Of a DNA stretch of 64,000 nt, positions 5,283 through 62,127 are shown piece after piece. A program made the position numbers and the translations under genes. Position 1 is the first letter of the stretch. Every line of letters begins with the position of its first letter. Origin of the DNA: Thecamonas trahens ATCC 50062 (Eukaryota > Protista > Apusomonadida); the NCBI RefSeq assembly GCF_000142905.1, contig NW_013657637.1:1-64000 (forward strand), given 5' to 3'. The notes below the pieces were generated by a model, which saw nothing but the letters and a program-made list of their open reading frames with translations, searched no databases and had not been told where the DNA came from.

Positions 5283-6701
5283 ATGGCGAGCGCGTATCTT
5301 CTTGCACTTCCTGATGAAGTGCTTCTGCATGTGGTGGTGGCCGCGGTGGCGGATGGCGGTGCAGCAGCGCAGGCTGCGGTCCAGAGCACCTGCCGCCGGT
5401 TGCGACGGATCGGCGACGATGTGGCGGTGTGGCGGGCGCTGGTGAGCCGAGGCGGGGCTGGCGGGGCATGGCCTGCATCGGGGAGTCTTGCCGATCGACG
5501 GATGTTGTTGCGGCGTAGGCAGGGTGGGGCGGATGATGCCGGCATTCTGACCGTGGTGGCGTGGAAGGCTGTGGCGCTCTCAAGGCTGCCGAGCTGGTGG
5601 GCGGTACGGGAGGCGCGCTGGCGAGGACAATGGTCGCTAGAGTGGCGCCCGGCTACGGTGGCGGTGGCGGCGTGCGCTCTCATGGTCTCGCCGGCCTACA
5701 ACGGCCAGTCACGCCGTCTCGACCGCGCCACCGATCGGCTCATGCTCGTCGCCGCGCCCATCCTCGCTGCCGCTACCGCTGAAGAGGTGGCCGAAGACGT
5801 GGTGGCGCCGGTCGTGGCGATGACCGACGCCATGAAGGAGACCGTACCCGGTGCTCGCTCCCGTCGCAGCTGCTGGGGGTATCTGAACAGCCTCGGCCCG
5901 CTCGGCCACCTGCTCCGGTGCGGCGTCATGACCTTGCCGGGCGAGTCTTGGCGGGCCGAGGTCGCGCGGCAGGTGGCCCACGTCTCTGACGCGCTGGCAC
6001 ATGCCGGTATGGCCGGCTTCATCCCGCTCCGCGACCTCACTCTGGCGCAGCTTGATGTTCTTGGGGAGCTTTGCACTGCTGCAGTCGCTGCTTTTCGCAT
6101 CGAGATGCTCCCGCCGGCCGCCGGCCCTGTCTTCCGCCGTCTCGTCCGCGACCTTCGCGCTCGCCTCGGGCCTCCGGACGGGCCGGAACTGGTAATGCTG
6201 GACCCGGCCGAGCGTCTGGTGCTGGGCGTAGTCATGCAGGCTTTTACTGGCCACGCACATGCGGTGTATCTCGATGCCGACGATCTACCCAACGTCAATC
6301 GCGCCGGCCATCTTGTTCTCCAGACCCTCCAGAACGCTGGCAATCTGATACTGGCGCCCACGTCGAGCGCACCGCTCGAATACCTCAACTCATGGCTCCC
6401 TGCCATGCACGCGCACCTAGTGCATGAGATCCACCGACTCCTTGCTCCTCCTGGTGGCAGCACCAGTCTATCTCCCTCTACTGCCGCAGCTGCCGCAGAC
6501 TCGGACTCGGACGCCGACTCGGACGCCGAGTTCACTGCCCTCGCGCACCACTCTGCCAAGGAAGAACTGGAGGTGCTGATCATGGGTGCGATGGATCCGC
6601 TCGCCGCCGCCATTGCCATCCGCCTCGACAGTCATCATCCAAATGCCGCGGCGGTCCTTGTCGCCGACATGGCCCGGCTCTGCCCAGATCGCCTCGCCTG
6701 A
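5283..6701 (+). CDS. F-box-like protein
   Basis: 472 aa ORF; N-terminal LLALPDEVLLHVV...VQSTCRRLRRIGDDVAVWRAL matches the F-box consensus; remainder unrecognised. Confidence 0.75.
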   Translation: MASAYLLALPDEVLLHVVVAAVADGGAAAQAAVQSTCRRLRRIGDDVAVWRALVSRGGAGGAWPASGSLADRRMLLRRRQGGADDAGILTVVAWKAVALSRLPSWWAVREARWRGQWSLEWRPATVAVAACALMVSPAYNGQSRRLDRATDRLMLVAAPILAAATAEEVAEDVVAPVVAMTDAMKETVPGARSRRSCWGYLNSLGPLGHLLRCGVMTLPGESWRAEVARQVAHVSDALAHAGMAGFIPLRDLTLAQLDVLGELCTAAVAAFRIEMLPPAAGPVFRRLVRDLRARLGPPDGPELVMLDPAERLVLGVVMQAFTGHAHAVYLDADDLPNVNRAGHLVLQTLQNAGNLILAPTSSAPLEYLNSWLPAMHAHLVHEIHRLLAPPGGSTSLSPSTAAAAADSDSDADSDAEFTALAHHSAKEELEVLIMGAMDPLAAAIAIRLDSHHPNAAAVLVADMARLCPDRLA

Positions 6702-9474: not shown

Positions 9475-10072
9475 NNNNNNNNNNNNNNNNNNNNNNNNNN
9501 NNNNNNNNNNNNNNNNNNNNNNNNNNNNNNNNNNNNNNNNNNNNNNNNNNNNNNNNNNNNNNNNNNNNNNNNNNNNNNNNNNNNNNNNNNNNNNNNNNNN
9601 NNNNNNNNNNNNNNNNNNNNNNNNNNNNNNNNNNNNNNNNNNNNNNNNNNNNNNNNNNNNNNNNNNNNNNNNNNNNNNNNNNNNNNNNNNNNNNNNNNNN
9701 NNNNNNNNNNNNNNNNNNNNNNNNNNNNNNNNNNNNNNNNNNNNNNNNNNNNNNNNNNNNNNNNNNNNNNNNNNNNNNNNNNNNNNNNNNNNNNNNNNNN
9801 NNNNNNNNNNNNNNNNNNNNNNNNNNNNNNNNNNNNNNNNNNNNNNNNNNNNNNNNNNNNNNNNNNNNNNNNNNNNNNNNNNNNNNNNNNNNNNNNNNNN
9901 NNNNNNNNNNNNNNNNNNNNNNNNNNNNNNNNNNNNNNNNNNNNNNNNNNNNNNNNNNNNNNNNNNNNNNNNNNNNNNNNNNNNNNNNNNNNNNNNNNNN
10001 NNNNNNNNNNNNNNNNNNNNNNNNNNNNNNNNNNNNNNNNNNNNNNNNNNNNNNNNNNNNNNNNNNNNNNNN
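9475..10072. other. Assembly gap (N run)
   Basis: Run of n; probably hides CDC14 exon 1. Confidence 0.99.
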
Positions 10073-41826: not shown

Positions 41827-43608
41827 ATGGGCCTGATCAACCTCCCGACCGAGCTCCTCCACGCCATTGCCTATCACACTCAGTTACTTACCATTGCGGA
41901 TGTGCTCTCTTTGGCATGTTCCTGCTCATCCATGGCCACAGCGCTCCTTGGCGATGACTTTGGCCGGAGACATCTTCGTCGCCTGGCAGGTCCTGCTGCA
42001 TGTGCCCGCGCGAAGAAGTGGCGGGCAGCGCTGGATGCCTTGACAAGACCCCATCGGCTCATCAAGGTCAACGCATCGCTGCTCACTCAGACACTTGCTG
42101 CTGCTATGGTTCACGATGTCGACGCTGGTGTGTGGCAAGATCGTCTCATTGACGCCTGTCTCGCGCATCCCTACTTCCACGTCGGTCACTCGGCCTGCCT
42201 CGTCCTCCGCAGGGCCGCCACACTCGGCAATGTCAGGGTCGTTGCCGCCGTGGCCGGTCATCCGGCTGCTGATCTGCGCAAGTGCCGCTCGCAGGCCATC
42301 TACGGTGCTGTCGACAACGGTCATGTCGATGTCGTCGCCCTCTTTCCGCACTTTCGAGGCAACGCCTTCCATCCGTTTCCGGTTCACCTCATCGCGCGCG
42401 CCATCAGCAAGGGCATTGCCCCGATGGTTCACAAGCTTACCAGCATGGCCTCGCGACACCAGCTTGACAGCGTCCGACTTGTTGTGAAAAGCTCTCTGCT
42501 GGGCGCGCCGCGCATGGCGTTCGTCCAAGGCGCTATTGACATTGCGCCTGACGCCATCCGGGCCGTCTTTGAGCACGTCCCCACCGCCACCATCGACGCT
42601 GCACTTCCCATGCTCTGCCTCCCTGCCCTGCTCCAAGCCGATGCTGCAGCCATCATGGCTCGTGTTGCTCCGCACCATGCAGCTGTCTTTGCCGCCGCAA
42701 CATCCGGCAATCTTCCGGCCTTGAGGTGTGCGCTCGACAACGCAAGCGAGGTTACATGCCCGGACCTCCTTGACACCGCCCTGAGCCTGGCCATGGCATG
42801 CGGCCATGTAGAGGCGATGGACATGATTGCGGATGTCCTCCCGATGCCTCTGCTGAACATCATTCCCCAGGCGTTGCTCATCGCTGTCGGGCGCAGCCAT
42901 CTGCGCACCATCGAGCGCTTGGCCGACATCGCTCGACCCGTCTTTACCACCTCTGTCACGGCATCCCTATTCCAGGCAGCTGTGGCCCTCGGCTACATCG
43001 AATGCGTTGACTTTTTGATTCAACGTATGGATGCTTGGCACCCGAACAGGTGTTACTCGCACGGGACGCTCGTCGCAGCCGCTATCCGATCTGGCTCGGT
43101 CGCCACCTTTGAGCGCGTCTCCAACTTGCCTGACTTCAATACCACCGCTGTCATGCGGGCTGGGCGGGATATGTTCTCGATACTCGTTCGCACAGACGGA
43201 TATGATATGCTCAATGCGATTGCCGACTTTGCTGCCCGCAACGCCTCGCTTGCCGAGCACACCAACTTCTTCTTCTTCTCCATGACCGTCGCCATGTCCT
43301 TTGCCGATTGCGTCGATCGTGGACACGCGCCCGACCTTGCCGCCGTTCTCTCCCGTGCCGCCATCCCGCGTACCGTCTTTACTCGCCTCCTAGCCTCTTT
43401 GTTTATCACCGATGTCCAAGCAGCCGCCATCCATGCCGTCCTTGCTCTCTACGACGCCAACAAGCCAAACCTCGACGCCCCCCCGGGCGCCTCATCACCA
43501 CCGGGCGCATCGACATCAACGACTTCTCGACCCATCCAAAAGTCCCGCAAACGCAACAAGCGCAAGCGCGGTCAAGCTCAAGACTCGCCAGAAGTAACGC
43601 AGTGGTGA
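41827..43608 (+). CDS. F-box + ankyrin-repeat protein
   Basis: LINLPTELLHAIA..DVLSLACSC (F-box); AATLGNVRVV, AVDNGHVDVV, AMACGHVEAM (ankyrin-like); basic tail. Confidence 0.8.
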   Translation: MGLINLPTELLHAIAYHTQLLTIADVLSLACSCSSMATALLGDDFGRRHLRRLAGPAACARAKKWRAALDALTRPHRLIKVNASLLTQTLAAAMVHDVDAGVWQDRLIDACLAHPYFHVGHSACLVLRRAATLGNVRVVAAVAGHPAADLRKCRSQAIYGAVDNGHVDVVALFPHFRGNAFHPFPVHLIARAISKGIAPMVHKLTSMASRHQLDSVRLVVKSSLLGAPRMAFVQGAIDIAPDAIRAVFEHVPTATIDAALPMLCLPALLQADAAAIMARVAPHHAAVFAAATSGNLPALRCALDNASEVTCPDLLDTALSLAMACGHVEAMDMIADVLPMPLLNIIPQALLIAVGRSHLRTIERLADIARPVFTTSVTASLFQAAVALGYIECVDFLIQRMDAWHPNRCYSHGTLVAAAIRSGSVATFERVSNLPDFNTTAVMRAGRDMFSILVRTDGYDMLNAIADFAARNASLAEHTNFFFFSMTVAMSFADCVDRGHAPDLAAVLSRAAIPRTVFTRLLASLFITDVQAAAIHAVLALYDANKPNLDAPPGASSPPGASTSTTSRPIQKSRKRNKRKRGQAQDSPEVTQW

Positions 43609-43875: not shown

Positions 43876-46552
43876 ATGAACAGGAGCAAGAAAGTCACCC
43901 AACCTCATCTAGTCATCCTTACTATTGCCCTTGTCCTCTCATGTGGCCTCTGTGACGAACCGGTCGAGCTCTATCTCCCTTGCTCAACCGCCGCGGCTCC
44001 GGCTATGCCTTTTCCCCGCTTTTCGCTTCCGCTAGTCTCCAACGACGGCGGTTCCTTATCACCTTTGTGCCTCGCGGGCGATCCGTCAAAATTTTATGCG
44101 TATTGTGGCTGGCAACCAACGCCGGTTTTCTCGGCACACTCGTTCGTCAATGCCTCCTCTCCACCAGCAGTACTAGCAGGTCCTGAACTCTTGCCCAAAG
44201 CAGACACCGTTGGCCCGTTTCTCACTGCTCATCTCAATGCGGATCCATGGATCGATCTCGTTGTGGCAGTGTCGGGCCAAGACACGAACGAGTTGGGCTG
44301 CTCCTTGTGGTGGTTGGCGGGCACCGACGATCCGCTCTCCTTTGCTGCGCCTGCGAGGCTCACTCTTGATACCCCGCCGTATCCTATCAGTTGCAATCGC
44401 GCCACCCGGCCTTCGCTTCTGCGCATGCCGTCGCCGGACGGGGGAAACTTTCCGCTCACTATGATATCCACCTTCACCACCCTCGACCAGTCTGTCTCGC
44501 TCAACGCCATCACGCTCGACGGGCCGATGCCGACAACGCCCAAGCTGCGAGTCCTCGACACCGTCCCCGACTCTTTCGGATTTAACGCCCTTGTTGCCGC
44601 CATCGCGCCCAACATTGTCGCCTTCGCTCCGCTCAACACGATCCGTCTCGTCTCACTCGCTCTCCCGCCGGCCTTTCCGCCGACGGTCTTGCCGCTGCCG
44701 AGCGAGCGTATTGCCAACGATTCCCAGCTCGTCGCGCTCACCTCGGCCGACGTCAACAACGATGGAATCATTGACCTCATCCTCAGCTGCAAGACTGTAT
44801 CTGCCGCCCATGCGTCCGTTGTTGTCGCTATCGCCAAGCTTGGAGCCCCTCTTTCGTGGCGCTTTGCCGTTGTCAGCAGCCCTGTCACTCCAGTCTCGAT
44901 AGCCGTCTGGCGGAGCCCCACATCTACCGAGCCATCTGCATCGCTCGTCTGGCTCTCCGCTATCCAGCCTGGTGTTGATAACTTCAACTTTGAGCTCTTT
45001 GCCATGCGCTTTGATCCAACAACCATGACACCTTCGGCCCTCACCGAGCTCTCGCCACTCGACGACGCGGGAGAGGCCACCAGCGCTGCGCTTGTTGTCT
45101 CGCCCTCGACCGACCCAGGTGCCTTTGGCTCTATCATTGTTGCGCGCGTCGTGGTCGAATCAGCTACTTCGGCAAGTAGCGGTGCCTCGTATCTCGTTGC
45201 CCCGCCTGCCTCCCCGCTGCCCGCAGACTCTCCGCATTTGACTCCCTCCCTCCCATCACCTCGTACTCGCACGCCTCCCGCGCCGCCGCAATTGCTGGCC
45301 TTGTCAACTCAGACACCGAGCCCGACATCGTCATTATTGACACCCATCATCAAGTCATCACCTTGATCAACAACATCCAGAGCGGCGTGCAAGCCAGCCA
45401 GTTCCAGCCCATTCTGGGCCCCACCCTCTCCGAGGACCTTGATTTCGGCACGGGTGCCATCCACATCTCGCTGGCAGACGCAGATGGCGACGGCTCCCAG
45501 GACCTCATGCTTACTTGTCTTTCATCGCCTACCTCCACTGGCATCTGGTACCTGCCTAACGCAGGTGGTGGTCAGTGGAACCCACTTGTTAGCCTCGCAA
45601 CGCTGCCGTTTACCATCATCAACGTTGTTCCCGTCTCCATTCGATCCGCCCTCGCCATCGAGTACATCGTGGCCTTGGACGAGACCAACAACGTCAACTC
45701 GCTTGTTTTTGTCTATCAGATCCAGGCCGGCTCGCCCGTCTTTGCCCACTGCTTCCTCCCGCCGGCACTCAACACAACATCTGAGCTCATTGCTCCGCTC
45801 CGTCCTCGTCACTCGCCGCTACCCTCGGACTCGGGCATCGTCATCGCCGCGCACTTGGGGTCATCCTCTTATCCTCTCTTCTGGGTCACGCTGGACCAGC
45901 TCGGCCATGAGTGCAAATGGAGTAGTACCACGCTGACTGTGCTGCCTGGTCGACCTAGTGCTCTCGTTGCTGGTCCTATCGGGCCTGGTGCGACAGGCGA
46001 TGACGTCGTCAGCATCATCAATGCCGATAACCATCCCATGCGCGCCACCAGTACGGTCTTCTCGCTCGCCATCATTCGTACCTCGGTCTCGACAACCAAC
46101 CCGCCAACCCAAGTTACTCCCATCCTTGCCATGGACACCGCGTGCGCCATCATCGCTGGCTTGTTATCATGTCGGTCTTTGGAGGGCCCGGCAACGATGT
46201 CGTTCTCGTCTGCGGAGCGCATCTGGTGGTATGGCAGGCTGTCGAGCCGGGAATGCTGGCGCCGGCGCCGCAGCGGATTGCCATCAGCGCCGCTTCTGAC
46301 AACGGTGAGACCTTGATCTCGCTCGTTGATCTGGACGGGAACGGCTTTCTGGACATCGTTCGTCTCGCTTCAAACGGCTTGCTGCTCTCGCTACAGCTGC
46401 CGAATCCGTGGCTGGACAACCCATTTGCCGAGCGCATTGTTCCGCTCCCACCGGCCAACTTCGCCTGCACACAGCCGGGCTCGCTCGCCTGTCTCGCCAC
46501 CGCCCTCTCGCACGTCTCCAACTGCAGGTCTGACACCGTGGCTCGTTGGTAG
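43876..46552 (+). pseudogene. 5' part of an FG-GAP/VCBS-repeat secreted/receptor gene; two frameshifts (~45225, ~46140) and truncated
   Basis: Signal peptide; FG-GAP loops HLNADPWIDLVV, DVNNDGIIDLIL, GLVNSDTEPDIVI (alternate frame), DADGDGSQDLML, DLDGNGFLDIV spread across three frames; stop at 46550-46552. Confidence 0.75.
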
Positions 46553-47415
46553 TTTCCCACTGATCGCTCCGAGGTGCGACTGGAGCATGTCCTTGCGCAG
46601 CGACGATTTGCTGCCGCCGCAGCAGGCGACGGCGCTGACGGTGGACGAGCCGGAGGACGCGGCGCTCGAGGTGTGGGCGCGGCTCGAGACGCCGACGCAG
46701 CAGCTGCCGTTCCTCTGGTACCCGCACGCCGACGCGCCGCGGCGGTACAAGGGCGCCGACGTCGAGCCGCCGGGCAAGAAGCCGCTCGCCGTGTGGGAGG
46801 TGGCCGATGACGAGGAGGGGGGGGCGCGGCTGCTGCTGTTCGGGACGACGGACAAGATCAAGCGCGGGACGGGACAGCCCGGAGTCCGGCTCGTGCCCGT
46901 GCCGGCGATGCAACGAGCTGACGAGCGCACAGCTGGTGGACATCTGCAACGCGGCGTTGTGGTCGCGGGCCGAGTTTATGGCTGTTGGGGGGTAGCTGCG
47001 GCGCGGTGTGCGGTGCGGCGCCGGCGATGTGCGCGTCAACATGCTGCGGCGGGTGCAGACGACGCTGCTGCTCGTCGAGCTCGCGCGCGCGCCGCCGTGC
47101 TCGTTGTTTGGCTTACACATGCATCGGCGTGGAGTGGACGCGCAGGCGAATGTGGCGCTCGGACACGGTCGACTCGCACACGGTGTTCAACTACATGCTG
47201 TGGTGTAGCGACGTGGTCGACGTGGCGGGAGGGGTGGAGGGCGAGGCTGAGGGTGGTGTGGCGCGAGTTGTGGACCACGTGGTGAACGACAGTACGCAGC
47301 GTCTCGCCGTCCAGCTCGAGCAGTTGTTGCGGATCTCGGACGCTCAGCCGGAGGAGTTGATGGCGGCGTTGTGCACTCGACCACGTCGTCGGCACATTGA
47401 CAGGTCAAGGCGAGT

Positions 47416-48431
47416 TCAACACATACTGCTCCAGCTCGAGCTCGGCGAGACGGGCACGCTCTCTGGTGACGCGAGCACGCTTGTCACTCGCCACCGCGGC
47501 TGCTTCGGCAGCACGGGCCTCGTCCTCGGCGGCGGCCATCGGAGTGCTTCGGCGGCAAGGCGGAGAGCGTGGAGCCGGGGGTGGGTGGAGGCACGCGTGG
47601 TGAGCTCTGAAGCGGCGGCAGCAGACAACACGCCTGCAGCGACCTCTGTGTGCTCGAGACGCGTCGGCGAGAGTGGCTGGAGCCGCTTTTGCACCGGCGC
47701 ACCAACGCCGACGGCGGCGGCGTCAAGCTTGCGCTTGCGTGTGCGAGTGGTCGTGGGCTTGGGGGTGAGCGAACGCTTCCTCCAGTACGCCAGCCACTCG
47801 TGGCCGGCGCGCTCCTCGGCGTACGTCGGCGGCGCGTCAAAGGCCGGGAGCGAGAGAGAGCGCACGGGCGACGACGAGTCGTGAGCCTCGGACCCGTGGC
47901 TCGCGCCAAACAAAGCGGGCTCGGCAGTAAACTTGCGCTTGAAGACCCGCCATTTTTGCATGTACCGCGTCCAGGTGGCGAGCGTCCGGGCCATCGTCTC
48001 GCTGTCAGCTCTGGCGCAAAGAAGCCGGGAGGGGAGGACTTGGAGAGGGCCGAGCTCATGCGTTCGAGCCGCAGCTTGAAGAGCGCGAGCGCAGCGTCAA
48101 CCACGAGACCCTGGGTGCGCGGCATGGTGTCATACCAGCAGTGCTCGCGCGCGAGGACGCGGACGGCTGCGGCCGGCGACGAGGCGGTCGGCACGCCGGC
48201 CTCCACCTCGAGGGCGAGGGGCGCGTCGGCGCCGGCCGGCCCGCCGCTGCTCCCCGCAGCAACGGCCAGGCACGAGGCCATGAGGGGGAGGAGGAACTCG
48301 ACCAGGTAGCCGGCGTGCTTGTTCGCTCCGGGCCGGGGCTGGGTCGAGGACGAGGAGGTGGAGGCCGTCGAGGACGGCGGGGTGGCGGACGAGGTGGGAG
48401 GCGAGGACGCGGGCTGCGAGCCTGTCCGCAT
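47416..48431 (-). pseudogene. Frameshifted hypothetical gene (two overlapping frames joined near 47995)
   Basis: MRTGSQ..EFLLPLMASCL..EHCWYDTM..PPGFFAPEL continues plausibly into MARTLATWTRYMQKWRVFKRKF..RKRK in another frame; no family recognised. Confidence 0.4.
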
Positions 48432-48816
48432 GGCGGGCGGTGCGAGCCGAGTGGGGGTGAAGGGGCGGCGGGCGAGGAGGTGCGTGGGCGCGGGGAGGGA
48501 CGCTGAGCCTTGGACGACGGACGACGGCGAGCTGTGTTGGGCGAGCGAGATGGGGGCTGGCTGTTGGGCGGCACCCGCACCCGCGTGAGGCCGACGCGAC
48601 CGGGCGGCCCCCGCCATTCGCGGGTGTGGGGCGAGGAAACAAGGAGGTGATGCAATATCGGACAAGTTTATCCGCTTGAACGCACAGCCTCCACCTGATC
48701 CCATTGAGGACCGACCAATAGAGGTGCCGAGGCGTGCGCGCCGCACCAAGCTCCCTGCCGGCCGCCGTGGAGCGGTGACGACTCGTGTGTCAAAACCTTG
48801 TTGAGCAACTGGGGGC

Positions 48817-50514
48817 TCAGCCGGTTCTCTTTCGCTTGCGTGGCGGAATCGACGGCCCAGAGGATGGGCCAGCCTCCGGCGAGCTGGCCACCTCGTCCAA
48901 CGAAGCACTGGACGACGAAGCACTGGACGAGGTACCGCCGCCAGACAAGAGTTCCGCACTGACCTCGTGAGGCGACACAGAATCGGAGTCGCTGCCAGAT
49001 GACGCGTCGGCAGGCGCTAGTGGTTGAAAGAAATGCGGAATGGAGCACTGCCTAGCCGTAGACTCACCGGCCCGCGTCATGACGTCTTCGAAAGTGTGCG
49101 ACGACTGCCTTGCAAGTCGCCGCAAATTGACCACCAGACGCTTCTTCTTCTTACTTGTCTTGACACACGGGGCGCAGTGCAGCTCTTGAAGGCGGCAATA
49201 CCTCAACTTTGCGGACTGCTGCTTGATGGCCCGCACCAGCGACATCACCTCCTTATTGCAGGCCTCCAACTCTGCTGCTGCAACTTCACCTTTGAGGCGG
49301 GCAACTTCACCTTTGAGGCGGGCCACCTCAGCCTCAGCATCCTCCGTGGTGGCCTTCGACAAATTGACCTCAGCTTGGGCCAACTCCACCTTCAGTTCCT
49401 CCACGAGCTTGTCCTCGATCTTCGACATGACACGAAAGGCATCACCCAGTGCTGTTGAGTATGCGTTGTAAATCGCGAGAGAGAACGGGTAGTACTGCGA
49501 GGGATCATTACCGAGGTGCGCATCGAGCGAGGCCCGGCTCTTGCGGTACGCAAGGTACCGCGCGGGCTGGTACTTCCTCCAAAATGCGTCAAGCTCTGCC
49601 CGACGATTTTGCTCAGCGTCGGAGAGTGTGACGGCGCCACCAGCGACCATCTTCACCACAGACTCGACAATCCTCGACAGATCGCCGAGATCGGTAGTCC
49701 TCGTCTTCACCGCGTCGCGCACATCCTGCTTCCCACACGAAGAGGCCACACCCTTCCGCATGTGGTCGAGCAACGACATGGTGGCGAAGATCGCACAGGT
49801 GCGCGTCAGCTTAGCGACGTCCTTCGTGGCGGCGCCCGCGTTCAAAGCCCCGGCCACTGAAGGTACGAACGTCATCATGAGATCATCGATGGCCTCGAGG
49901 ACGTCGGTGTACTCGCCGGCCACCACAGCGCTCACCCTCACGTGGCAGCTCTCGATGGCAGCCTTGACAGCGGAGCGGTCACCAGAGTGCGAATCCAGGG
50001 CGTTACACAGCAACGTGCGAACAGCCTTCTCGTCGTCGTCGCTGCGGGCCCCAATCGGCTTCGTCAACAGGGCCACACTGTCCTCAGGCACAGACGAGTT
50101 AAACGAGCCGGTGAACCAGAAAATCCAATCGACCGTCTCCCGCTTGAGAGGAATCGACTGGAGGAACTTGCCAAGCTCGATGAAGAAGTCCGACGTCCGG
50201 GAGAGACCCACGGACTTCGATTTCTCCGAGACGTAGTGCTTCACTTGCGTGAGAGCAGGGAGCTTTCCCTCTACATGCAGTACAACGTCCTCACGCCCTT
50301 CGATGGTGATCGCCGCGGCCTGGGGTGAGGGGTCCGCAACAGCAGCTTGAACAAGTTGGAGGCCAGCGCAGGCCGCCTGGTACTCATACCCCGTCGCAGA
50401 AACGTGTGCCATGCGATCGTTGAGCGAGACGCCCCCGTTAGATACGGCCAGGATAGAAGAAACGCAGTCAGCCTCGAACTCGCCAGCGGTTCGCGACGTG
50501 CTCCGCGCAGACAT
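48817..50514 (-). CDS. Cap4/DUF4297-like PD-(D/E)xK endonuclease domain + coiled coil + basic NLS-like tail
   Basis: Intact, intronless 565 aa; SATGYEYQ...ITIEGREDVVL...LTQVKHY motif; EVARLKG tandem repeat; ends PPRKRKRTG. Confidence 0.72.
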   Translation of the reverse strand: MSARSTSRTAGEFEADCVSSILAVSNGGVSLNDRMAHVSATGYEYQAACAGLQLVQAAVADPSPQAAAITIEGREDVVLHVEGKLPALTQVKHYVSEKSKSVGLSRTSDFFIELGKFLQSIPLKRETVDWIFWFTGSFNSSVPEDSVALLTKPIGARSDDDEKAVRTLLCNALDSHSGDRSAVKAAIESCHVRVSAVVAGEYTDVLEAIDDLMMTFVPSVAGALNAGAATKDVAKLTRTCAIFATMSLLDHMRKGVASSCGKQDVRDAVKTRTTDLGDLSRIVESVVKMVAGGAVTLSDAEQNRRAELDAFWRKYQPARYLAYRKSRASLDAHLGNDPSQYYPFSLAIYNAYSTALGDAFRVMSKIEDKLVEELKVELAQAEVNLSKATTEDAEAEVARLKGEVARLKGEVAAAELEACNKEVMSLVRAIKQQSAKLRYCRLQELHCAPCVKTSKKKKRLVVNLRRLARQSSHTFEDVMTRAGESTARQCSIPHFFQPLAPADASSGSDSDSVSPHEVSAELLSGGGTSSSASSSSASLDEVASSPEAGPSSGPSIPPRKRKRTG

Positions 50515-50820
50515 GACGTGCTGGTGGAAGTGAAGTGCCGGGGACGGGGTGGTGTCCGTTGCAATAGAGCGAAAGGGTGGTCGTTGTTCAGGCGGTCACG
50601 ACACCATCCTTGACATGCAACCAACCCACGCATGGCGGAGTTCTGGAGAAATAGTCGCCGACATCAAAACTCGCCCACGTGCGGCACCCCTCCACTAGGT
50701 CCAGCCGGCACCACTCTCTCCCTACCTGTATGTTTCCTTCTCCTCGGCCCCATCCTGTCCGGTGCGTTCGTGCTCAAGCGACTCATGCGATACTTGCCGA
50801 TTCAGAGCGCACTTGCCAGA

Positions 50821-51276
50821 ATGTCTGTGGAGTCGGACTCGCTCAGCTACGACCTTGCTCCCGGTGATGAAGACGCGCCCATTGACCTTCAATCGGAGGT
50901 GGAGAACATGTTTGACGAGGACATGGAGGCCGAGCAAGTGTTGGCCAAACTCATGAGGCGCCACAACCGGTACTCGCAGAGCTTTGCAAACAAGGTGGTG
51001 CGTGAGACGAACAGGCACAACTTCCTGCACAGCTGCCTCACGTGTTCGCACATGTTCGACTCGTGGCGCCAGCTGAAACAGCATTTGATCCGCGAGAAAC
51101 ACATCAAGTCAGGCAAGACCCACAAAGCTCAGCAACGGCAAGAGCTCGAAGAGCTCGACAATCGTGTCCGGGACAAGGATCCTGACGACTACTCGCCTGC
51201 CGAGTTGCGCACTATGGTGCGTGTCCGTCTTCGCTCCGCGTATCGTGAGCGCTTGAACCCGCGCCGTAAACGATAG
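50821..51276 (+). CDS. Small C2H2 zinc-finger protein
   Basis: CLTCSHMFDSWRQLKQHLIREKH; acidic N-terminus; ends PRRKR; start could be upstream (50632 or 50785). Confidence 0.7.
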   Translation: MSVESDSLSYDLAPGDEDAPIDLQSEVENMFDEDMEAEQVLAKLMRRHNRYSQSFANKVVRETNRHNFLHSCLTCSHMFDSWRQLKQHLIREKHIKSGKTHKAQQRQELEELDNRVRDKDPDDYSPAELRTMVRVRLRSAYRERLNPRRKR

Positions 51277-51315
51277 CTATCACCTGACTGGCTTGGACGA
51301 GACAGTGCGACGGGC

Positions 51316-52089
51316 ATGGCAGCACGAAGGAAGGAGAAGAGTTTGTATGTGCTCAGGTGTGAGGGGGGCAAGTACTATGTCGGGGCGACGCGCAACGTGG
51401 CGCGGCGGGTAGGGGAGCATGCCAAGGGGCGCGGCGCGGCGTGGACTAGCCGGCATGCACCGCTTGAGCTGGTGGAGGAGCGACTCATGGCGCGGGCGGC
51501 GGATGAGGATGCGCTAGTGAAGGAATACATGGCCCAGCACGGCATCGAGAATGTCCGCGGCGGCGCGTACTCGAGCGTCACCCTCTCGCATGTGCAGGCG
51601 CAAGCGCTGGTCACCGAGCTGTGGCATGCCGAGGACCGCTGCCTCGGGTGTGGCAACCAGGGCCACTACGTCCGCGACTGTCCAGCTGACTCGGAGTCGT
51701 ACGATACCGAGTCGGACGATTCGCCGTCGCCGCCACCTGCACGGGTGGTCTGCTACGCGTGCGGCGAGACCGGCCACGTGCGCCCTGCCTGCCGTTACAA
51801 GTCGGCCACATGGTACACCTGTGGCGTGCTGGGCCACATCGCGCCCGTCTGCCCCCTGGGCGCCGACGCGGGCTCGGGCTCGTCGTCGAGCAGTCCTGAG
51901 GTGCCGCTCCGCTCGTCACGGTCGTCGCGGTCATCACGCACGCCATCACGGACCTCGCGCTCCTCAGGTGTAGTGTGCTTTGCGTGCGGCCGGTCAGGGC
52001 ACGTCCGACCTGCTTGCCGATACAAGTCGGCGACGTGCTACTCGTGCGGGGAGTATGGCCACATCGTCCCTGCGTGCCCGAACACGTGA
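51316..52089 (+). CDS. GIY-YIG endonuclease fused to five CCHC zinc knuckles (one degenerate)
   Basis: LYVLRCEGGKYYVGAT..RR..EH..G.GAAWT...EDALVKEYM..GIENVRGG; CLGCGNQGHYVRDC, CYACGETGHVRPAC, WYTCGVLGHIAPVC, CFACGRSGHVRPAC, CYSCGEYGHIVPAC. Confidence 0.9.
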   Translation: MAARRKEKSLYVLRCEGGKYYVGATRNVARRVGEHAKGRGAAWTSRHAPLELVEERLMARAADEDALVKEYMAQHGIENVRGGAYSSVTLSHVQAQALVTELWHAEDRCLGCGNQGHYVRDCPADSESYDTESDDSPSPPPARVVCYACGETGHVRPACRYKSATWYTCGVLGHIAPVCPLGADAGSGSSSSSPEVPLRSSRSSRSSRTPSRTSRSSGVVCFACGRSGHVRPACRYKSATCYSCGEYGHIVPACPNT

Positions 52090-52199
52090 ACTGTTGGTTG
52101 TTGTCCGTTCTTCCTCGCAGGATGCTCGTTTCGGGGTGGACGAAGGGGAAGCGACTTGGGGCTGGGCAGTTGTCGGTGGTGCGCTTATCTGGTGCGCCG

Positions 52200-53209
52200 C
52201 TGGCGGCGGGAGCACTGACGCTCCTGGTCAAGACGCTGGTGGTGCACGTGCAGACGCTCGCGGCGCTGGTCGCCGTGTTTGACAATGGGACTGGACGTCG
52301 GCCATGCGGAGCGTCACGTCAGCGGTCCGCAAGACCTCGCTGTAGGTGACCGGCCTCGAGTGCAACGGCATCGGGTTTGCGGGCGAGTACGTCCTATTCT
52401 GGGCGCTCGGGCCCATCATGCTCGCGGCGCTGGCGCTGGCGTTCGCCGCCGTGCGCCTCTCGTTCAAGTCGCACGCTGCGCGCAGCCCGGTGGGCGGGAC
52501 GGCCGTCGGCCTGCTCGCCGCCGCCCGCACGGCCGCCCAGCTCCGCGCCGCCGCGACCAAGTACGCGCTAGTCACGTTCTACCTTTTCGTGTACCCGCTC
52601 GTCGCGCGCTCGCTGACCCTCTTCGCGTGCGTGCCCGAGCAAGTCTCCCACCCGCAGGCGAGCTACCTGGCGAGCGCGCCGTGGCTCCGCTGTGGCTCGT
52701 CCGAGCAGGTCTCGCTTGCGCTTAGCTCTGGTGCGGTGCTGCTACTCGTCGCGGCGGCGGTGACCGTCATCGCGCTGCAGATGCGGTCGGCAGTGGTGGA
52801 CGGCCGCGACACGACGGCGTACGCGTTCCTGTACGCCGGGTTTGTGCACCGTGCGTGGTGGTTTGAGGGCGTGGTGCTCGCCCGGCGTGTGGGCGTCGCT
52901 GTGTTTGCCTCACTGCTGCCGCCCGGTACAGTCTTTGCCAGTCCAGCGCTCCAGGCTGTTGTGGTTGCCTTCCTCCTGGTGCTCCTGTTCGTCCGGCCCA
53001 ACCGGACCAATCTCGCGCTCCAGCTGGAAGCGGCAGCAACTGTGACGGCGCTGATCTCGGTCGTGCTCGTCCAGAACATGCTGTACACCGCCACCAAGTC
53101 GTCCCTCGCCGCGATGACGCTCCTCGTCATCGTCCTCAACGGCGCTGTCATCGCCGCCCTTACGGCTGGCCTCCTCGCTCCGCTTTTTGTCCTCCTCCGC
53201 GGCCGCTGA
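52200..53209 (+). pseudogene. Orphan C-terminal multi-TM fragment of a receptor paralogous to 53575-56070
   Basis: LVKTLVVHVQTL..(frameshift ~52290)..KTSL*VTGLEC (in-frame TAG at 52343)..SYLASAPWLRCGS..YAFLYAGF..WWFEGVVLARR; no ectodomain upstream. Confidence 0.75.
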
Positions 53210-53574
53210 CCTCTCTCCACGTCCGAAAATGATCGTAACCGGTGAGCCGGCCGATGCCGGACGACTCAGCTGGCTTGCGCGGAGCGGCCGTCCCAGCGGC
53301 CGTCCCTCATCAGCTCGCCCCACCCACCACACGCTCGCCCCCACCCACACGCCCCAAAACCGGCCCACCTCTCAACCACCCCCAACCCCATTTACCGCCT
53401 AGATCTAATGATAATCCCCGCACCCATCCCCTCCCCCGGATTGCCGACCCGGGTTCGTGACCGCCACTGCCCCAGCTCACCACCCCCCCACCACACGCAT
53501 GCCCGCTGACCCCGACAACATCGAGGCGGCGATTGGGTGCTACGAGGTGGCGCTGGATGTGCGCACGCGTGAGT

Positions 53575-56070
53575 ATGCTTGTCGGCAGCTCGACCTTTGA
53601 TCGTAACTCGGCCACCACTGGTGGCGTTCTCGCCGTCCTGCAGGACTTTAACCCGCAGGTGATCTCTTCCGGAGCGGTCGCTCACCCGGCTCTGCTCAGC
53701 CTTCCCTATGTCCGATACGTCGCGGCACACGTTGTACTGGACAACGTCACCGTCACTGACAATGGCGCTGCCTATGGCGGTCTCTTCTTTCTGGTCGGCT
53801 GCTCGATTGAGGTTACTGGCCGCGTCCGCGGCTGGGGCAACAGCGTGCTCGGAGAGGCAGGATCAGTGGCATACGCCTCGCAAGCACTCGGAGAGCACAA
53901 AACTGATCTGGGGGTTCTTGTCCGCGGGACAAACAAGAGTCGCGCTGATCTTCGCAGCGCGTGCCTGCCCGTGCGCTGGGGAGGTGATGTGGCCACACCG
54001 ATTGCCACCATCGAGTGGCTCGTTGGCGCGGATCAGCTCAACGGCACTGCCGTCCCGTCGGGCTTTGCTCTACCGCACAACTTTGCTGTTGTTGTTCGCG
54101 ACACCAACGGTGCGCTGGTCATTGATTCGGATGTCGTCATCGAGCTCCAGGTCTACGATGGCAAAGGTGGGAGCTTCGCCATCTTCGGCGGAACGCCGCA
54201 GATCATTCTCCGCCATAACGTCACCGAGCTGACAAGCATGGGCATTGCTATCACTTCGATGGATCAGATCGGATCCTGGGTTACTGTCCGCGCCTTGGCC
54301 TCGTACGCTGCGGTGGAGGGCTTCTCTAACGTGGCTACACAAGCCATCTCGCTGCTCATCGATGGCTGCCCTGGGAATCGACCCCCGGTGCCCCACGGCG
54401 ACAGCGCACTCGTCTGCGTCTGCCCCGTCAATGCCATATCGATGCAGCTGATTGACGCCGAGACCGGCGTGCAGCGAACAGGCTGTGGATGCACCGCCCA
54501 ATTCTGGACGCCGAGTCTTCCGGTGGCGCGATGCGATCGTTGCCCCATCGGCGGAGACTGTGTCGGTGGCGAGGCCAAGCCAAGTGCGGCTGACGGCTAC
54601 TTCCCCACCTCGGATCCAAGCTACTTTCTTAAGTGCCCGATTGATGGCGCATGTGCAGGCTCCGGAACTTGTGCTGCTGGCTACAGTGGTCGGCTTTGTG
54701 CCAAGTGTGCAAGCGGATGGTACGCAACGGGCCTGGCTGCCGGGAAGTGCACGCAGTGCAAACTCGGCGCCGCCGGAACAGCCGCCGTCCTCGCGACCAT
54801 CGGCGTGCTTTGCATCTTCTTACTTGTTGGCTATGTAGTCACCCCGCAAAGCATCAGCAACGACCGCGCCAGTCGTGCCCCGGGCTCGTTGCAGGAAGCG
54901 CCGATGTCGCTATGGGACCGGAGCCGCAGCCACACCGGCAGGATCAAGACCTTGGCTATGTCTTCCATTATCGAACTTGTTGTGGTCGTTCTTCTTGGTG
55001 TCTTTGGTCTTGCAAAAGCCTGGGAGGTCGTGGTCATCGGCCTTTGCCTTGTCACGCTAAGCCTGTACGCCGTAGTCGACAGGCCTGCACAGACAACCCG
55101 GATCTCTGCAGTGCTCAAAACTATTGTGGTCTTTGTGCAGACAGTCGGTGCGGTGCTAAGCTCTGGGAATGGTCTTTTGTCATCATCGTCGTCGCTACAC
55201 ACCATCTATGGCGTGCTTCAGCGTGCCAGCCTGACCCTCACCGGCCTGGGCTGCCTTGATCTGGGGCAACTGGGCCTCCTCTGGCTCTTTGTGGCTCTGA
55301 CTGCCGGCCCGGTTCTCCTCTGCCTCGCCCTCCGATACGCGCCATGCCAGAGTCAGGGCATGCGGCGCCGAGCCGAAGGTGCAGCAGGCACCCTCGGCTA
55401 CCTTTTTGTCTTTCCACTCCTGCACCACTTGCTGGAGCACCTCTCGTGCGTCCCCGATCCGACGCCTGGTGCCCATCGCTCGTACCTGGATGCGGCACCC
55501 TGGATCGCTTGCGGCTCGGACGAACACATCGCACTCGTGGCGTCGGCTTTGAGTGTTCTGCTTGGTATTGCCTCTGCAGTTGCCGTCACCAGCGCAGTGG
55601 CCTGGTGCGCCCATCAAGCTAGTGAGCGCGAGATCTGCGATGATCGCCTCGTCCCGCTGCTCGACAGTGATGCGATGGTCATGGTTGCCGAGCATTCGCC
55701 TGTTGCCTTTCTTTGGCACACCTTCCGAGCCGAGGCCTGGTGGTATGAGGGTGTGGTTTTCACGCGAAGAGTGGCGATTGCGGTGGCGGTGGCGACCATT
55801 CCGAGAGGATCGGTCTTTACCAGCGGTGTGCTAGCCGCGACAGTCGCCGTGTCGCTCGCGGCTCACCTGCACTTTCGTCCGTACATCGACGAAGTCGCAC
55901 ACCGCATGGAGATCACAGGCCTTGTGGCCGCTCTCATTGTCATTCAGATTGTCGGCATGATGGAGCAAGCCGAAGCCGAGACTTCGATCGCCGTCCTCGC
56001 CGCCGAGTTTGTCATTGTCACCATTGGCGTGGTCGCGACCGGCCTTGTTGTGGCAGCCGGCGCCGTGTAA
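53575..56070 (+). CDS. 3' part of a beta-helix (GGxx repeat) / Cys-rich / multi-TM receptor-like gene; lacks signal peptide
   Basis: FDRNSATTGGVLAV, DNGAAYGGLFF; CDRCPIGGDC..CAAGYSGRLCAKC..GWY; TM bundle with SYLDAAPWIAC and AFLWHTF..WWYEGVVFTRR. Confidence 0.75.
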   Translation: MLVGSSTFDRNSATTGGVLAVLQDFNPQVISSGAVAHPALLSLPYVRYVAAHVVLDNVTVTDNGAAYGGLFFLVGCSIEVTGRVRGWGNSVLGEAGSVAYASQALGEHKTDLGVLVRGTNKSRADLRSACLPVRWGGDVATPIATIEWLVGADQLNGTAVPSGFALPHNFAVVVRDTNGALVIDSDVVIELQVYDGKGGSFAIFGGTPQIILRHNVTELTSMGIAITSMDQIGSWVTVRALASYAAVEGFSNVATQAISLLIDGCPGNRPPVPHGDSALVCVCPVNAISMQLIDAETGVQRTGCGCTAQFWTPSLPVARCDRCPIGGDCVGGEAKPSAADGYFPTSDPSYFLKCPIDGACAGSGTCAAGYSGRLCAKCASGWYATGLAAGKCTQCKLGAAGTAAVLATIGVLCIFLLVGYVVTPQSISNDRASRAPGSLQEAPMSLWDRSRSHTGRIKTLAMSSIIELVVVVLLGVFGLAKAWEVVVIGLCLVTLSLYAVVDRPAQTTRISAVLKTIVVFVQTVGAVLSSGNGLLSSSSSLHTIYGVLQRASLTLTGLGCLDLGQLGLLWLFVALTAGPVLLCLALRYAPCQSQGMRRRAEGAAGTLGYLFVFPLLHHLLEHLSCVPDPTPGAHRSYLDAAPWIACGSDEHIALVASALSVLLGIASAVAVTSAVAWCAHQASEREICDDRLVPLLDSDAMVMVAEHSPVAFLWHTFRAEAWWYEGVVFTRRVAIAVAVATIPRGSVFTSGVLAATVAVSLAAHLHFRPYIDEVAHRMEITGLVAALIVIQIVGMMEQAEAETSIAVLAAEFVIVTIGVVATGLVVAAGAV

Positions 56071-62027: not shown

Positions 62028-62127
62028 NNNNNNNNNNNNNNNNNNNNNNNNNNNNNNNNNNNNNNNNNNNNNNNNNNNNNNNNNNNNNNNNNNNNNNNNN
62101 NNNNNNNNNNNNNNNNNNNNNNNNNNN
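62028..62127. other. Assembly gap (N run)
   Basis: Run of n. Confidence 0.98.

Follow-up and report, generated by a model that had tools for sequence, protein, structure and literature searches.

An open reading frame (ORF) of 565 codons in the genome of Thecamonas trahens raises the question of whether a eukaryote has kept a bacterial anti-phage nuclease and, if so, what the protein might do there. The ORF runs from ATG to stop at 48817-50514 on the minus strand of a 64,000-nucleotide stretch of contig NW_013657637.1 (the window). An initial annotation, made from the letters alone, had described an intact, intronless gene with a Cap4/DUF4297-like nuclease domain, a coiled coil and a nuclear localisation signal (NLS)-like tail. 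The ORF and all of the motifs named there were present in the window translation, on the minus strand. The first 423 residues are those of AMSG_08599, an uncharacterised NCBI model of 427 aa in a cluster with one member. We conclude that this is a real, host-integrated and catalytically intact-looking LmuA-type nuclease gene in a protist; its origin is well supported, and its function as proposed below is a hypothesis.

The nuclease domain and its nearest family

The ORF and the elements of its nuclease domain are as follows.

48817..50514, minus strand: whole ORF, AMSG_08599, 565 aa (NCBI model, 427 aa)
49945..50412, minus strand: Cap4/LmuA-type PD-(D/E)xK nuclease domain, aa 35-190 (PADLOC LmuA, E 6.9e-10; hhalign 96%, 143 columns)
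50377..50391, minus strand: G-Y-E-Y-Q motif, aa 42-46; G, Y, Y and Q each occur in at least 153 of 158 LmuA rows
50287..50301, minus strand: E-G-R-E-D motif, aa 72-76; Asp76 is the predicted metal-binding Asp
50236..50247, minus strand: Q-V-K-H motif, aa 90-93; Lys92 aligns with the catalytic Lys of solved LmuA

When the whole protein was compared with 5027 PADLOC models, LmuA was the sole match (E 3.6e-9, aa 39-186); the nuclease domain alone gave the E value listed above. LmuA relatives came from the protein collection, GTDB genomes and metagenomes; of the 99 metagenome entries, 80 were kept. Patterns from three seeds served to gather 158 full-length CTD7-type proteins, a set that is biased towards this type; their profile aligned to aa 34-186 with an hhalign probability of 96%. 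Further, aa 100-190 alone outscored 104 of 104 shuffles, and the catalytic motif G-Y-x-Y-Q ... D ... Q-x-K stood in register with known Cap4/DUF4297 members. This three-part motif occurs once in the 127,996 codons of the six-frame translation of the window. The Pfam Cap4_nuclease match was weak (E 0.075), with a PF14130 score of 13.7-14.6 bits, below the gathering cut-off of 26.2 bits; the PF14130 label is also missing from most true LmuA proteins among the profile-search matches listed. The proposed Cap4/DUF4297-like assignment thus held, and the sequence evidence supports a Cap4/LmuA-type PD-(D/E)xK nuclease homologue that keeps its catalytic residues.

Within the Cap4-type nucleases, CTD7-type Lamassu LmuA was the closest family, rather than CBASS Cap4. 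When 53 broader Cap4-like rows from bacterial genomes were compared with AMSG_08599, the 12 that matched best were all LmuA-type; 11 had a strong CTD7 score and one was cut by a contig end. ESM Atlas features placed ABC-3C proteins with Cap4 and CTD7 first (0.97), and in the Atlas model aa 31-344 aligned to ABC-3C proteins at TM 0.48-0.50. No SAVED domain was found in the protein (Pfam) and no CD-NTase among 32 window ORFs; scans with Pfam, NCBIfam and PADLOC found no NTPase family in the protein, where an Avs or STAND-fused Cap4 would have a STAND NTPase and a repeat sensor in the same chain. AMSG_08599 is neither a CBASS Cap4 nor an Avs protein.

A structural model built on 46 LmuA rows (pLDDT 61.9) best matched LmuA, HerA-DUF4297, HamA and Cap4, at modest scores that are not independent of the LmuA alignment from which the model was built. 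The single-sequence fold was unusable (pLDDT 39.8) and matched helical hairpins only. The restriction-endonuclease fold that had been proposed for the N-terminal domain was recovered. The fold family is common to CBASS Cap4 (6vm5, 6vm6), HerA-DUF4297 (9c1m), Hachiman HamA/AbpA (8zue) and Avs3 (8dgc), all of which were among the top structure matches. Unlike these proteins, AMSG_08599 had no SAVED, HamA, STAND or HerA partner domain that we could find, and its sequence match to them was weaker than to LmuA.

The pattern of conservation bears on catalysis. Of the 28 nuclease-domain columns with at least 90% conservation, AMSG_08599 kept 15, among them E, D, Q and K; of 107 poorly conserved columns it kept 17. 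On a very long branch, this difference points to selection on the active site. Glu75 replaces the invariant first Asp of the E-x-x-D-D motif of CTD7-type LmuA. Of the 53 Cap4-like bacterial rows, 16 share this E-x-x-E-D form, and several bacterial Cap4/DUF4297 members have it.

Accessory regions and a possible mode of action

Behind the nuclease domain lie the following elements.

49423..49944, minus strand: helical middle domain, aa 191-364, helical in both models
49180..49422, minus strand: heptad coiled coil, aa 365-445 (heptad pattern; weak coiled-coil matches)
49280-49321, minus strand: exact 21-nt tandem duplication, equal to one extra heptad (EVARLKG at aa 396 and 403)
49138..49152, minus strand: KKKKR basic motif, aa 455-459, NLS-like
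48826..48846, minus strand: PPRKRKR basic motif, aa 557-563, NLS-like, following a Ser-rich low-complexity tail

The middle domain may be a diverged, shortened ("worn") LmuA CTD7, or a replacement for it. No CTD7 sequence match was found in aa 190-370, where 47 of 64 shuffles scored as high, and only 3 of 21 conserved LmuA C-terminal columns were matched, with 11 in gaps. ESM Atlas features of aa 190-370 alone retrieved three CTD7-bearing clusters at 0.76-0.79, which is under the tool's bar and serves as a lead only. An Atlas structure search with the middle part alone returned unrelated helical proteins (TM at most 0.42).

The coiled coil, which lies outside the region matched by bacterial LmuA relatives, was found with its EVARLKG duplication as the initial annotation had it, and a contig of run X1 that starts at 49293 fits two copies of the 21-nt repeat. 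The NLS-like tail fared less evenly: both basic motifs are in the 565-aa ORF, but they are absent from the NCBI model and lie where the coding score is poor. Runs of at least four basic residues were also present in 4 of the 19 other window ORFs examined, so that NLS-like motifs by themselves count for little.

The nearest known counterpart is the short (type II) Lamassu/ABC-3C LmuA, which consists of Cap4 and CTD7 (V. cholerae DdmA, PDB 9nxx/9uxl; S. enterica LmuA, PDB 9hqu/9hr5; Pfam PF20283; PADLOC PDLC03848). AMSG_08599 shares with it a nuclease homologous over about 145 columns with up to about 30% identity, the motifs G-Y-x-Y-Q, E-x-x-(D/E)-D and Q-x-K-H, and a helical domain at the same place after the nuclease. 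Unlike LmuA, it is found in a eukaryotic host, a CTD7 is not detectable by sequence, the C-terminal LmuA motifs are absent, and a coiled coil and a basic, Ser-rich tail have been added. Neither lmuC nor lmuB was found in the window (best profile E values 0.92 and 4.3 among 1077 six-frame stretches). Since the partner genes are absent from the window and CTD7 is unproven, we do not class AMSG_08599 as a Lamassu system.

The accessible parts of three preprints describe how LmuA is controlled. LmuA is held as a monomer by LmuB/LmuC; once released, it tetramerises through its CTD and two nuclease domains pair into one active site, and K57A and K68A changes leave LmuA inactive (bioRxiv 10.1101/2025.04.02.646746; 10.1101/2025.03.14.643221; 10.1101/2025.06.23.660979). 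LmuA cleaves DNA only with two nuclease domains paired. Its cut site is degenerate, so that any DNA is degraded, and N-LmuA-cJun fusions are toxic in E. coli unless the Lys is changed to Ala (bioRxiv 10.1101/2025.03.14.643221). In that source two constructs with a leucine zipper fused to the nuclease domain were made for each of two proteins, and one of the two was toxic in each case, indicating sensitivity to geometry. AMSG_08599 resembles this engineered fusion in having an LmuA nuclease followed by a coiled coil, without LmuB/LmuC. It differs in being a natural gene for a putative nuclease, with about 175 residues of helical domain between the nuclease and the coiled coil.

From the combination of an LmuA-like nuclease with a coiled coil of its own, we therefore infer a self-pairing DNase under some form of host control. 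The reading that we prefer, tentatively and at slightly less than an even chance, is that a nuclease of LmuA type from a bacterium, now linked to a helical and a coiled-coil region, would act as a stand-alone, oligomerisation-gated DNase and serve as an effector of defence or cell death. Pairing of the nuclease domains would come from the coiled coil, alone or together with the middle domain, in place of the lost LmuB/LmuC control, and the nuclease would likely switch on when copies are brought together. A host partner, or tight control of expression, would keep it off, and the basic tail, should the 565-aa form be produced, would direct the protein to the nucleus. Several points weigh against this reading. 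Some 175 residues separate the coiled coil from the nuclease, and the outcome of the cJun test depended on geometry. An unrestrained DNase in the nucleus would be lethal, with no inhibitor or sensor identified. Further, the predicted active site has Glu for an invariant Asp, the Pfam Cap4 score is under its cut-off and the gene is an orphan in one genome.

If the gene has a bacterial LmuA-type origin, we regard a defence or cell-death role as evenly balanced. A more elaborate version, which we think improbable, would have the eukaryote rebuild Lamassu-style abortive immunity from one gene: the captured LmuA nuclease, its LmuB/LmuC switch replaced by the coiled coil and nuclear localisation signals, would be held off by a host partner, possibly an SMC/Rad50-type complex, and released on infection by a DNA virus to destroy nuclear DNA. 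Such a protein would be a natural version of the N-LmuA-leucine-zipper chimera.

Alternatively, a gene of the same bacterial origin might have been domesticated for a non-immune job. Its product would then be a DNA-binding protein or a nuclease under regulation that acts in repair, in recombination or in the digestion of prey DNA. Host-like codon use and long residence would suit such a role, as would the single copy found by protein search and the lack of a defence partner in the window. However, all of the solved relatives that were matched are anti-phage effectors, and degradation of any DNA at a degenerate site suits killing better than repair. We consider this alternative rather unlikely.

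Bacterial REase-fold domains have been transferred into eukaryotes and reused there, some of them in the nucleus, as in the Crinkler-type REase effectors, in which a header domain precedes a C-terminal REase, and in other REase-fold transfers. Unlike the Crinkler-type effectors, AMSG_08599 has an N-terminal nuclease of the Cap4/LmuA type, is single copy and showed no header domain. The eukaryotic "Lamassu homologues" of Cury et al. share the idea that Lamassu parts have eukaryotic counterparts, but in the part of the source available they rest on a trypsin-protease LmuA profile (human CTRC), and the terms Cap4 and Thecamonas have 0 occurrences in the accessible main text (bioRxiv 10.1101/2022.12.12.520048). 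The literature searched, part of which was accessible only in portions, gave no account of a eukaryotic Cap4-type LmuA nuclease; AMSG_08599 may be listed in Krishnan 2020 or in the supplement to Cury et al. No paper on Thecamonas, antiphage defence and nucleases together was found in the same literature. Cap4 has 0 occurrences in the accessible text of PMC10732462 and 0 in that of PMC12680541, and the comparison also included the accessible parts of PMC13276650, PMC10586767 and PMC13581612.

The retention of bacterial defence modules in eukaryotes is an active topic. Selection in eukaryotes is believed to disfavour effectors that cut DNA non-specifically, as argued for restriction-modification and CRISPR in the available text of PMC11249213. 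An intact Cap4/LmuA-type nuclease in an apusomonad would be a counter-example to such selection, and one that is easy to test because bacterial assays and catalytic mutants already exist. If active, the protein would represent a rare reuse of a bacterial anti-virus nuclease in a eukaryote, within a lineage close to animals and fungi. The weight of the finding is limited, since it concerns a single orphan gene with a proposed function.

Neighbouring genes and the gene model

The two right neighbours of the nuclease gene are intact ORFs, at 50632-51276 (C2H2) and 51316-52089 (GIY-YIG and zinc knuckles), and its left neighbours change frame. In a contig of run X2 an extra base closes one of these left-side breaks, which is therefore possibly an assembly error. 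The suggestion that the gene stays intact while its neighbours are broken was thus not borne out, and the argument carries little weight.

The first right neighbour (plus strand) encodes 214 aa that include a weak C2H2 zinc finger and have RRKR at the C terminus, and stands head-to-head with the nuclease gene, 117 bases apart; its exact sequence was not in the protein collection. The second (plus strand) is intact and encodes a GIY-YIG nuclease of 257 aa that carries several CCHC zinc knuckles; the gene contains an internal repeat of 115 nt. Two nuclease genes thus lie close together here, the GIY-YIG gene being two genes away from the LmuA-like one. A single-protein scan found no relatives of the GIY-YIG gene in viral contigs. 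Beyond it, a membrane-protein fragment at 52346-53209 precedes a full DUF7630 paralogue at 53557-56070 (both plus strand), which looks like a partial tandem duplication.

The left neighbour, at 47419-48431 on the minus strand, belongs to no known family, has a basic KRK-rich end and changes frame near 48030 through an intron or a frameshift. An FG-GAP-repeat gene at 43876-46549 (plus strand) is split over frames; extra bases behind 46151 in one X2 contig and behind 45757 in one X5 contig suggest that some of its breaks may be assembly errors. Two F-box-like/ankyrin-type orphan ORFs lie at 41827-43608 and 5283-6701 (both plus strand), the first with a KRKR tail like that of the nuclease gene.

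These surroundings bear on the possibility that the gene is cargo or a toxin of a settled selfish or virus-derived element, together with the GIY-YIG/zinc-knuckle gene two ORFs away. The intact state of that gene would fit, as would three small orphan-like genes standing side by side and the low codon scores of the neighbours (0.06). Against this, no convincing terminal repeats were found in 46000-53500, and scans of 32 window ORFs found no transposase, capsid or polymerase families. Further, neither the nuclease gene nor the GIY-YIG gene had relatives in viral contigs, phage and plasmid records or BFVD, and composition was host-like. We judge this explanation unlikely. A 12-nt inverted match (48641 and 49255), found by eye, was judged to be chance.

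The gene model raises a further question, about which product is made.

49243-49216, minus strand: 28-nt GT..AG intron implied by the NCBI model; splicing gives a 427-aa protein that ends before both basic motifs

If this shorter form were the real product, the protein could be a cytoplasmic nuclease acting on DNA of cytoplasmic viruses or engulfed bacteria, a reading that differs from the preferred one in location only. In its favour, besides the NCBI model itself, the codon score against the host model was 0.28-0.37 bits per codon for aa 35-424 and fell to about -0.06, near zero, directly after the predicted splice donor. However, the implied intron is only 28 nt long and has no pyrimidine tract, the heptad pattern continues to about aa 445, and no stop interrupts the 141 codons that follow aa 424, as was the case in 215 of 20,000 shuffles. 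Frame 0 was the best of six for aa 425-500. No splice joint across 49216..49243 was found among the contigs compared, and contigs of three runs (X1, X3 and X6), which are not on record as RNA, cross 49243-49216 unspliced; read depth in X1 was uneven. We think the 565-aa form more likely than the 427-aa form, and we consider the cytoplasmic reading very unlikely. Of the earlier description as intronless, the open frame and unspliced contigs speak for it, and the NCBI model and the falling codon score against it. At the other end, translation may in fact start at Met35, which is near the position of the first residue in bacterial LmuA proteins.

Origin and host integration

The gene lies in a gap-free stretch (runs of N occur in the window only at 9475-10072 and 62028-62127) that also contains conserved eukaryotic genes, with those for an aminotransferase, a CRAL-TRIO protein, a TPR protein that we take to be BBS8, EME1, RhoGAP and AIR9. 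GC, GC3 (0.72) and codon adaptation of AMSG_08599 were within the range of its neighbours. At the 5' end of the gene a contig bridge reaches into the next gene (50454-50859), and at the stop contigs run on into the 3' flank (48651-49302). No single contig spans the whole region, and study P1, among the contig sources, may be the assembly's own source. The concern that the segment might be unlinked to its host flanks was thus answered by the bridging contigs, the gap-free stretch and the host-like codon use.

When 1.84 billion representatives were searched by phmmer with AMSG_08599, only the protein itself passed E 0.001, and word searches likewise recovered only itself (1 of 7997 and 1 of 1606 candidates). 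Single-protein searches found no relatives in viral, genome and metagenome contigs, in plasmid and phage records or among PDB sequences, and a BFVD structure search gave nothing under E 0.1. In the profile search, the query alone had a eukaryotic source label among the best 120 of 322 matches. The protein searches thus found no eukaryotic relative, and the gene is known from one genome, in single copy by protein search. Direct searches of 653 genomes of the Myxococcota, Bacillota and cyanobacteria groups gave 5 weak matches only (E up to 0.01); two of these were inspected at their loci and proved to be unrelated genes.

In trees of the nuclease domain, the branch of AMSG_08599 was 2.8-4 changes per column long. 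It was placed outside, next to the LmuA-type clade, in a 74-row tree, which omitted 8 loci that lacked a usable nuclease start, and nested inside it in a 36-row tree; the two placements were indistinguishable by the AU test (p 0.586). Because the gene is an orphan with a long, unplaced branch, no donor can be named. Since every relative found was bacterial-type, a bacterial origin is the simplest reading, and the distribution of relatives suggests that the gene very probably derives from a bacterial LmuA-type gene by an old transfer. The earlier proposal of horizontal or viral acquisition is thus upheld for the bacterial source, but the searches of viral contigs, phage records and BFVD gave no sign of a viral route.

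The very long branch, the loss of the C-terminal LmuA motifs and the lack of a detected orthologue might also describe a functionless relic of the transfer that has not yet decayed. We regard this as highly unlikely, since an open frame and a full catalytic set would hardly outlast such divergence without selection, and codon use is fully host-like. Bacterial contamination or misassembly, which the bacterial-type domain, the culture of a bacterivore, the possible overlap of study P1 with the assembly and the lack of one spanning contig could suggest, is scarcely credible for a gene on a 324,729-base record that is bridged into both flanks, has no close bacterial relative and is not followed by lmuC/lmuB, whereas an LmuC-sized ORF comes next in 34 of 34 bacterial LmuA loci with room (and a Walker-A ORF in 19 of 34).

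A minor observation concerns three proteins from Bacteroidota-group genomes (L244, L246 and L255). These Cap4-like proteins of 400-440 aa have an atypical first motif and no CTD7 score, and they form their own branch near LmuA.
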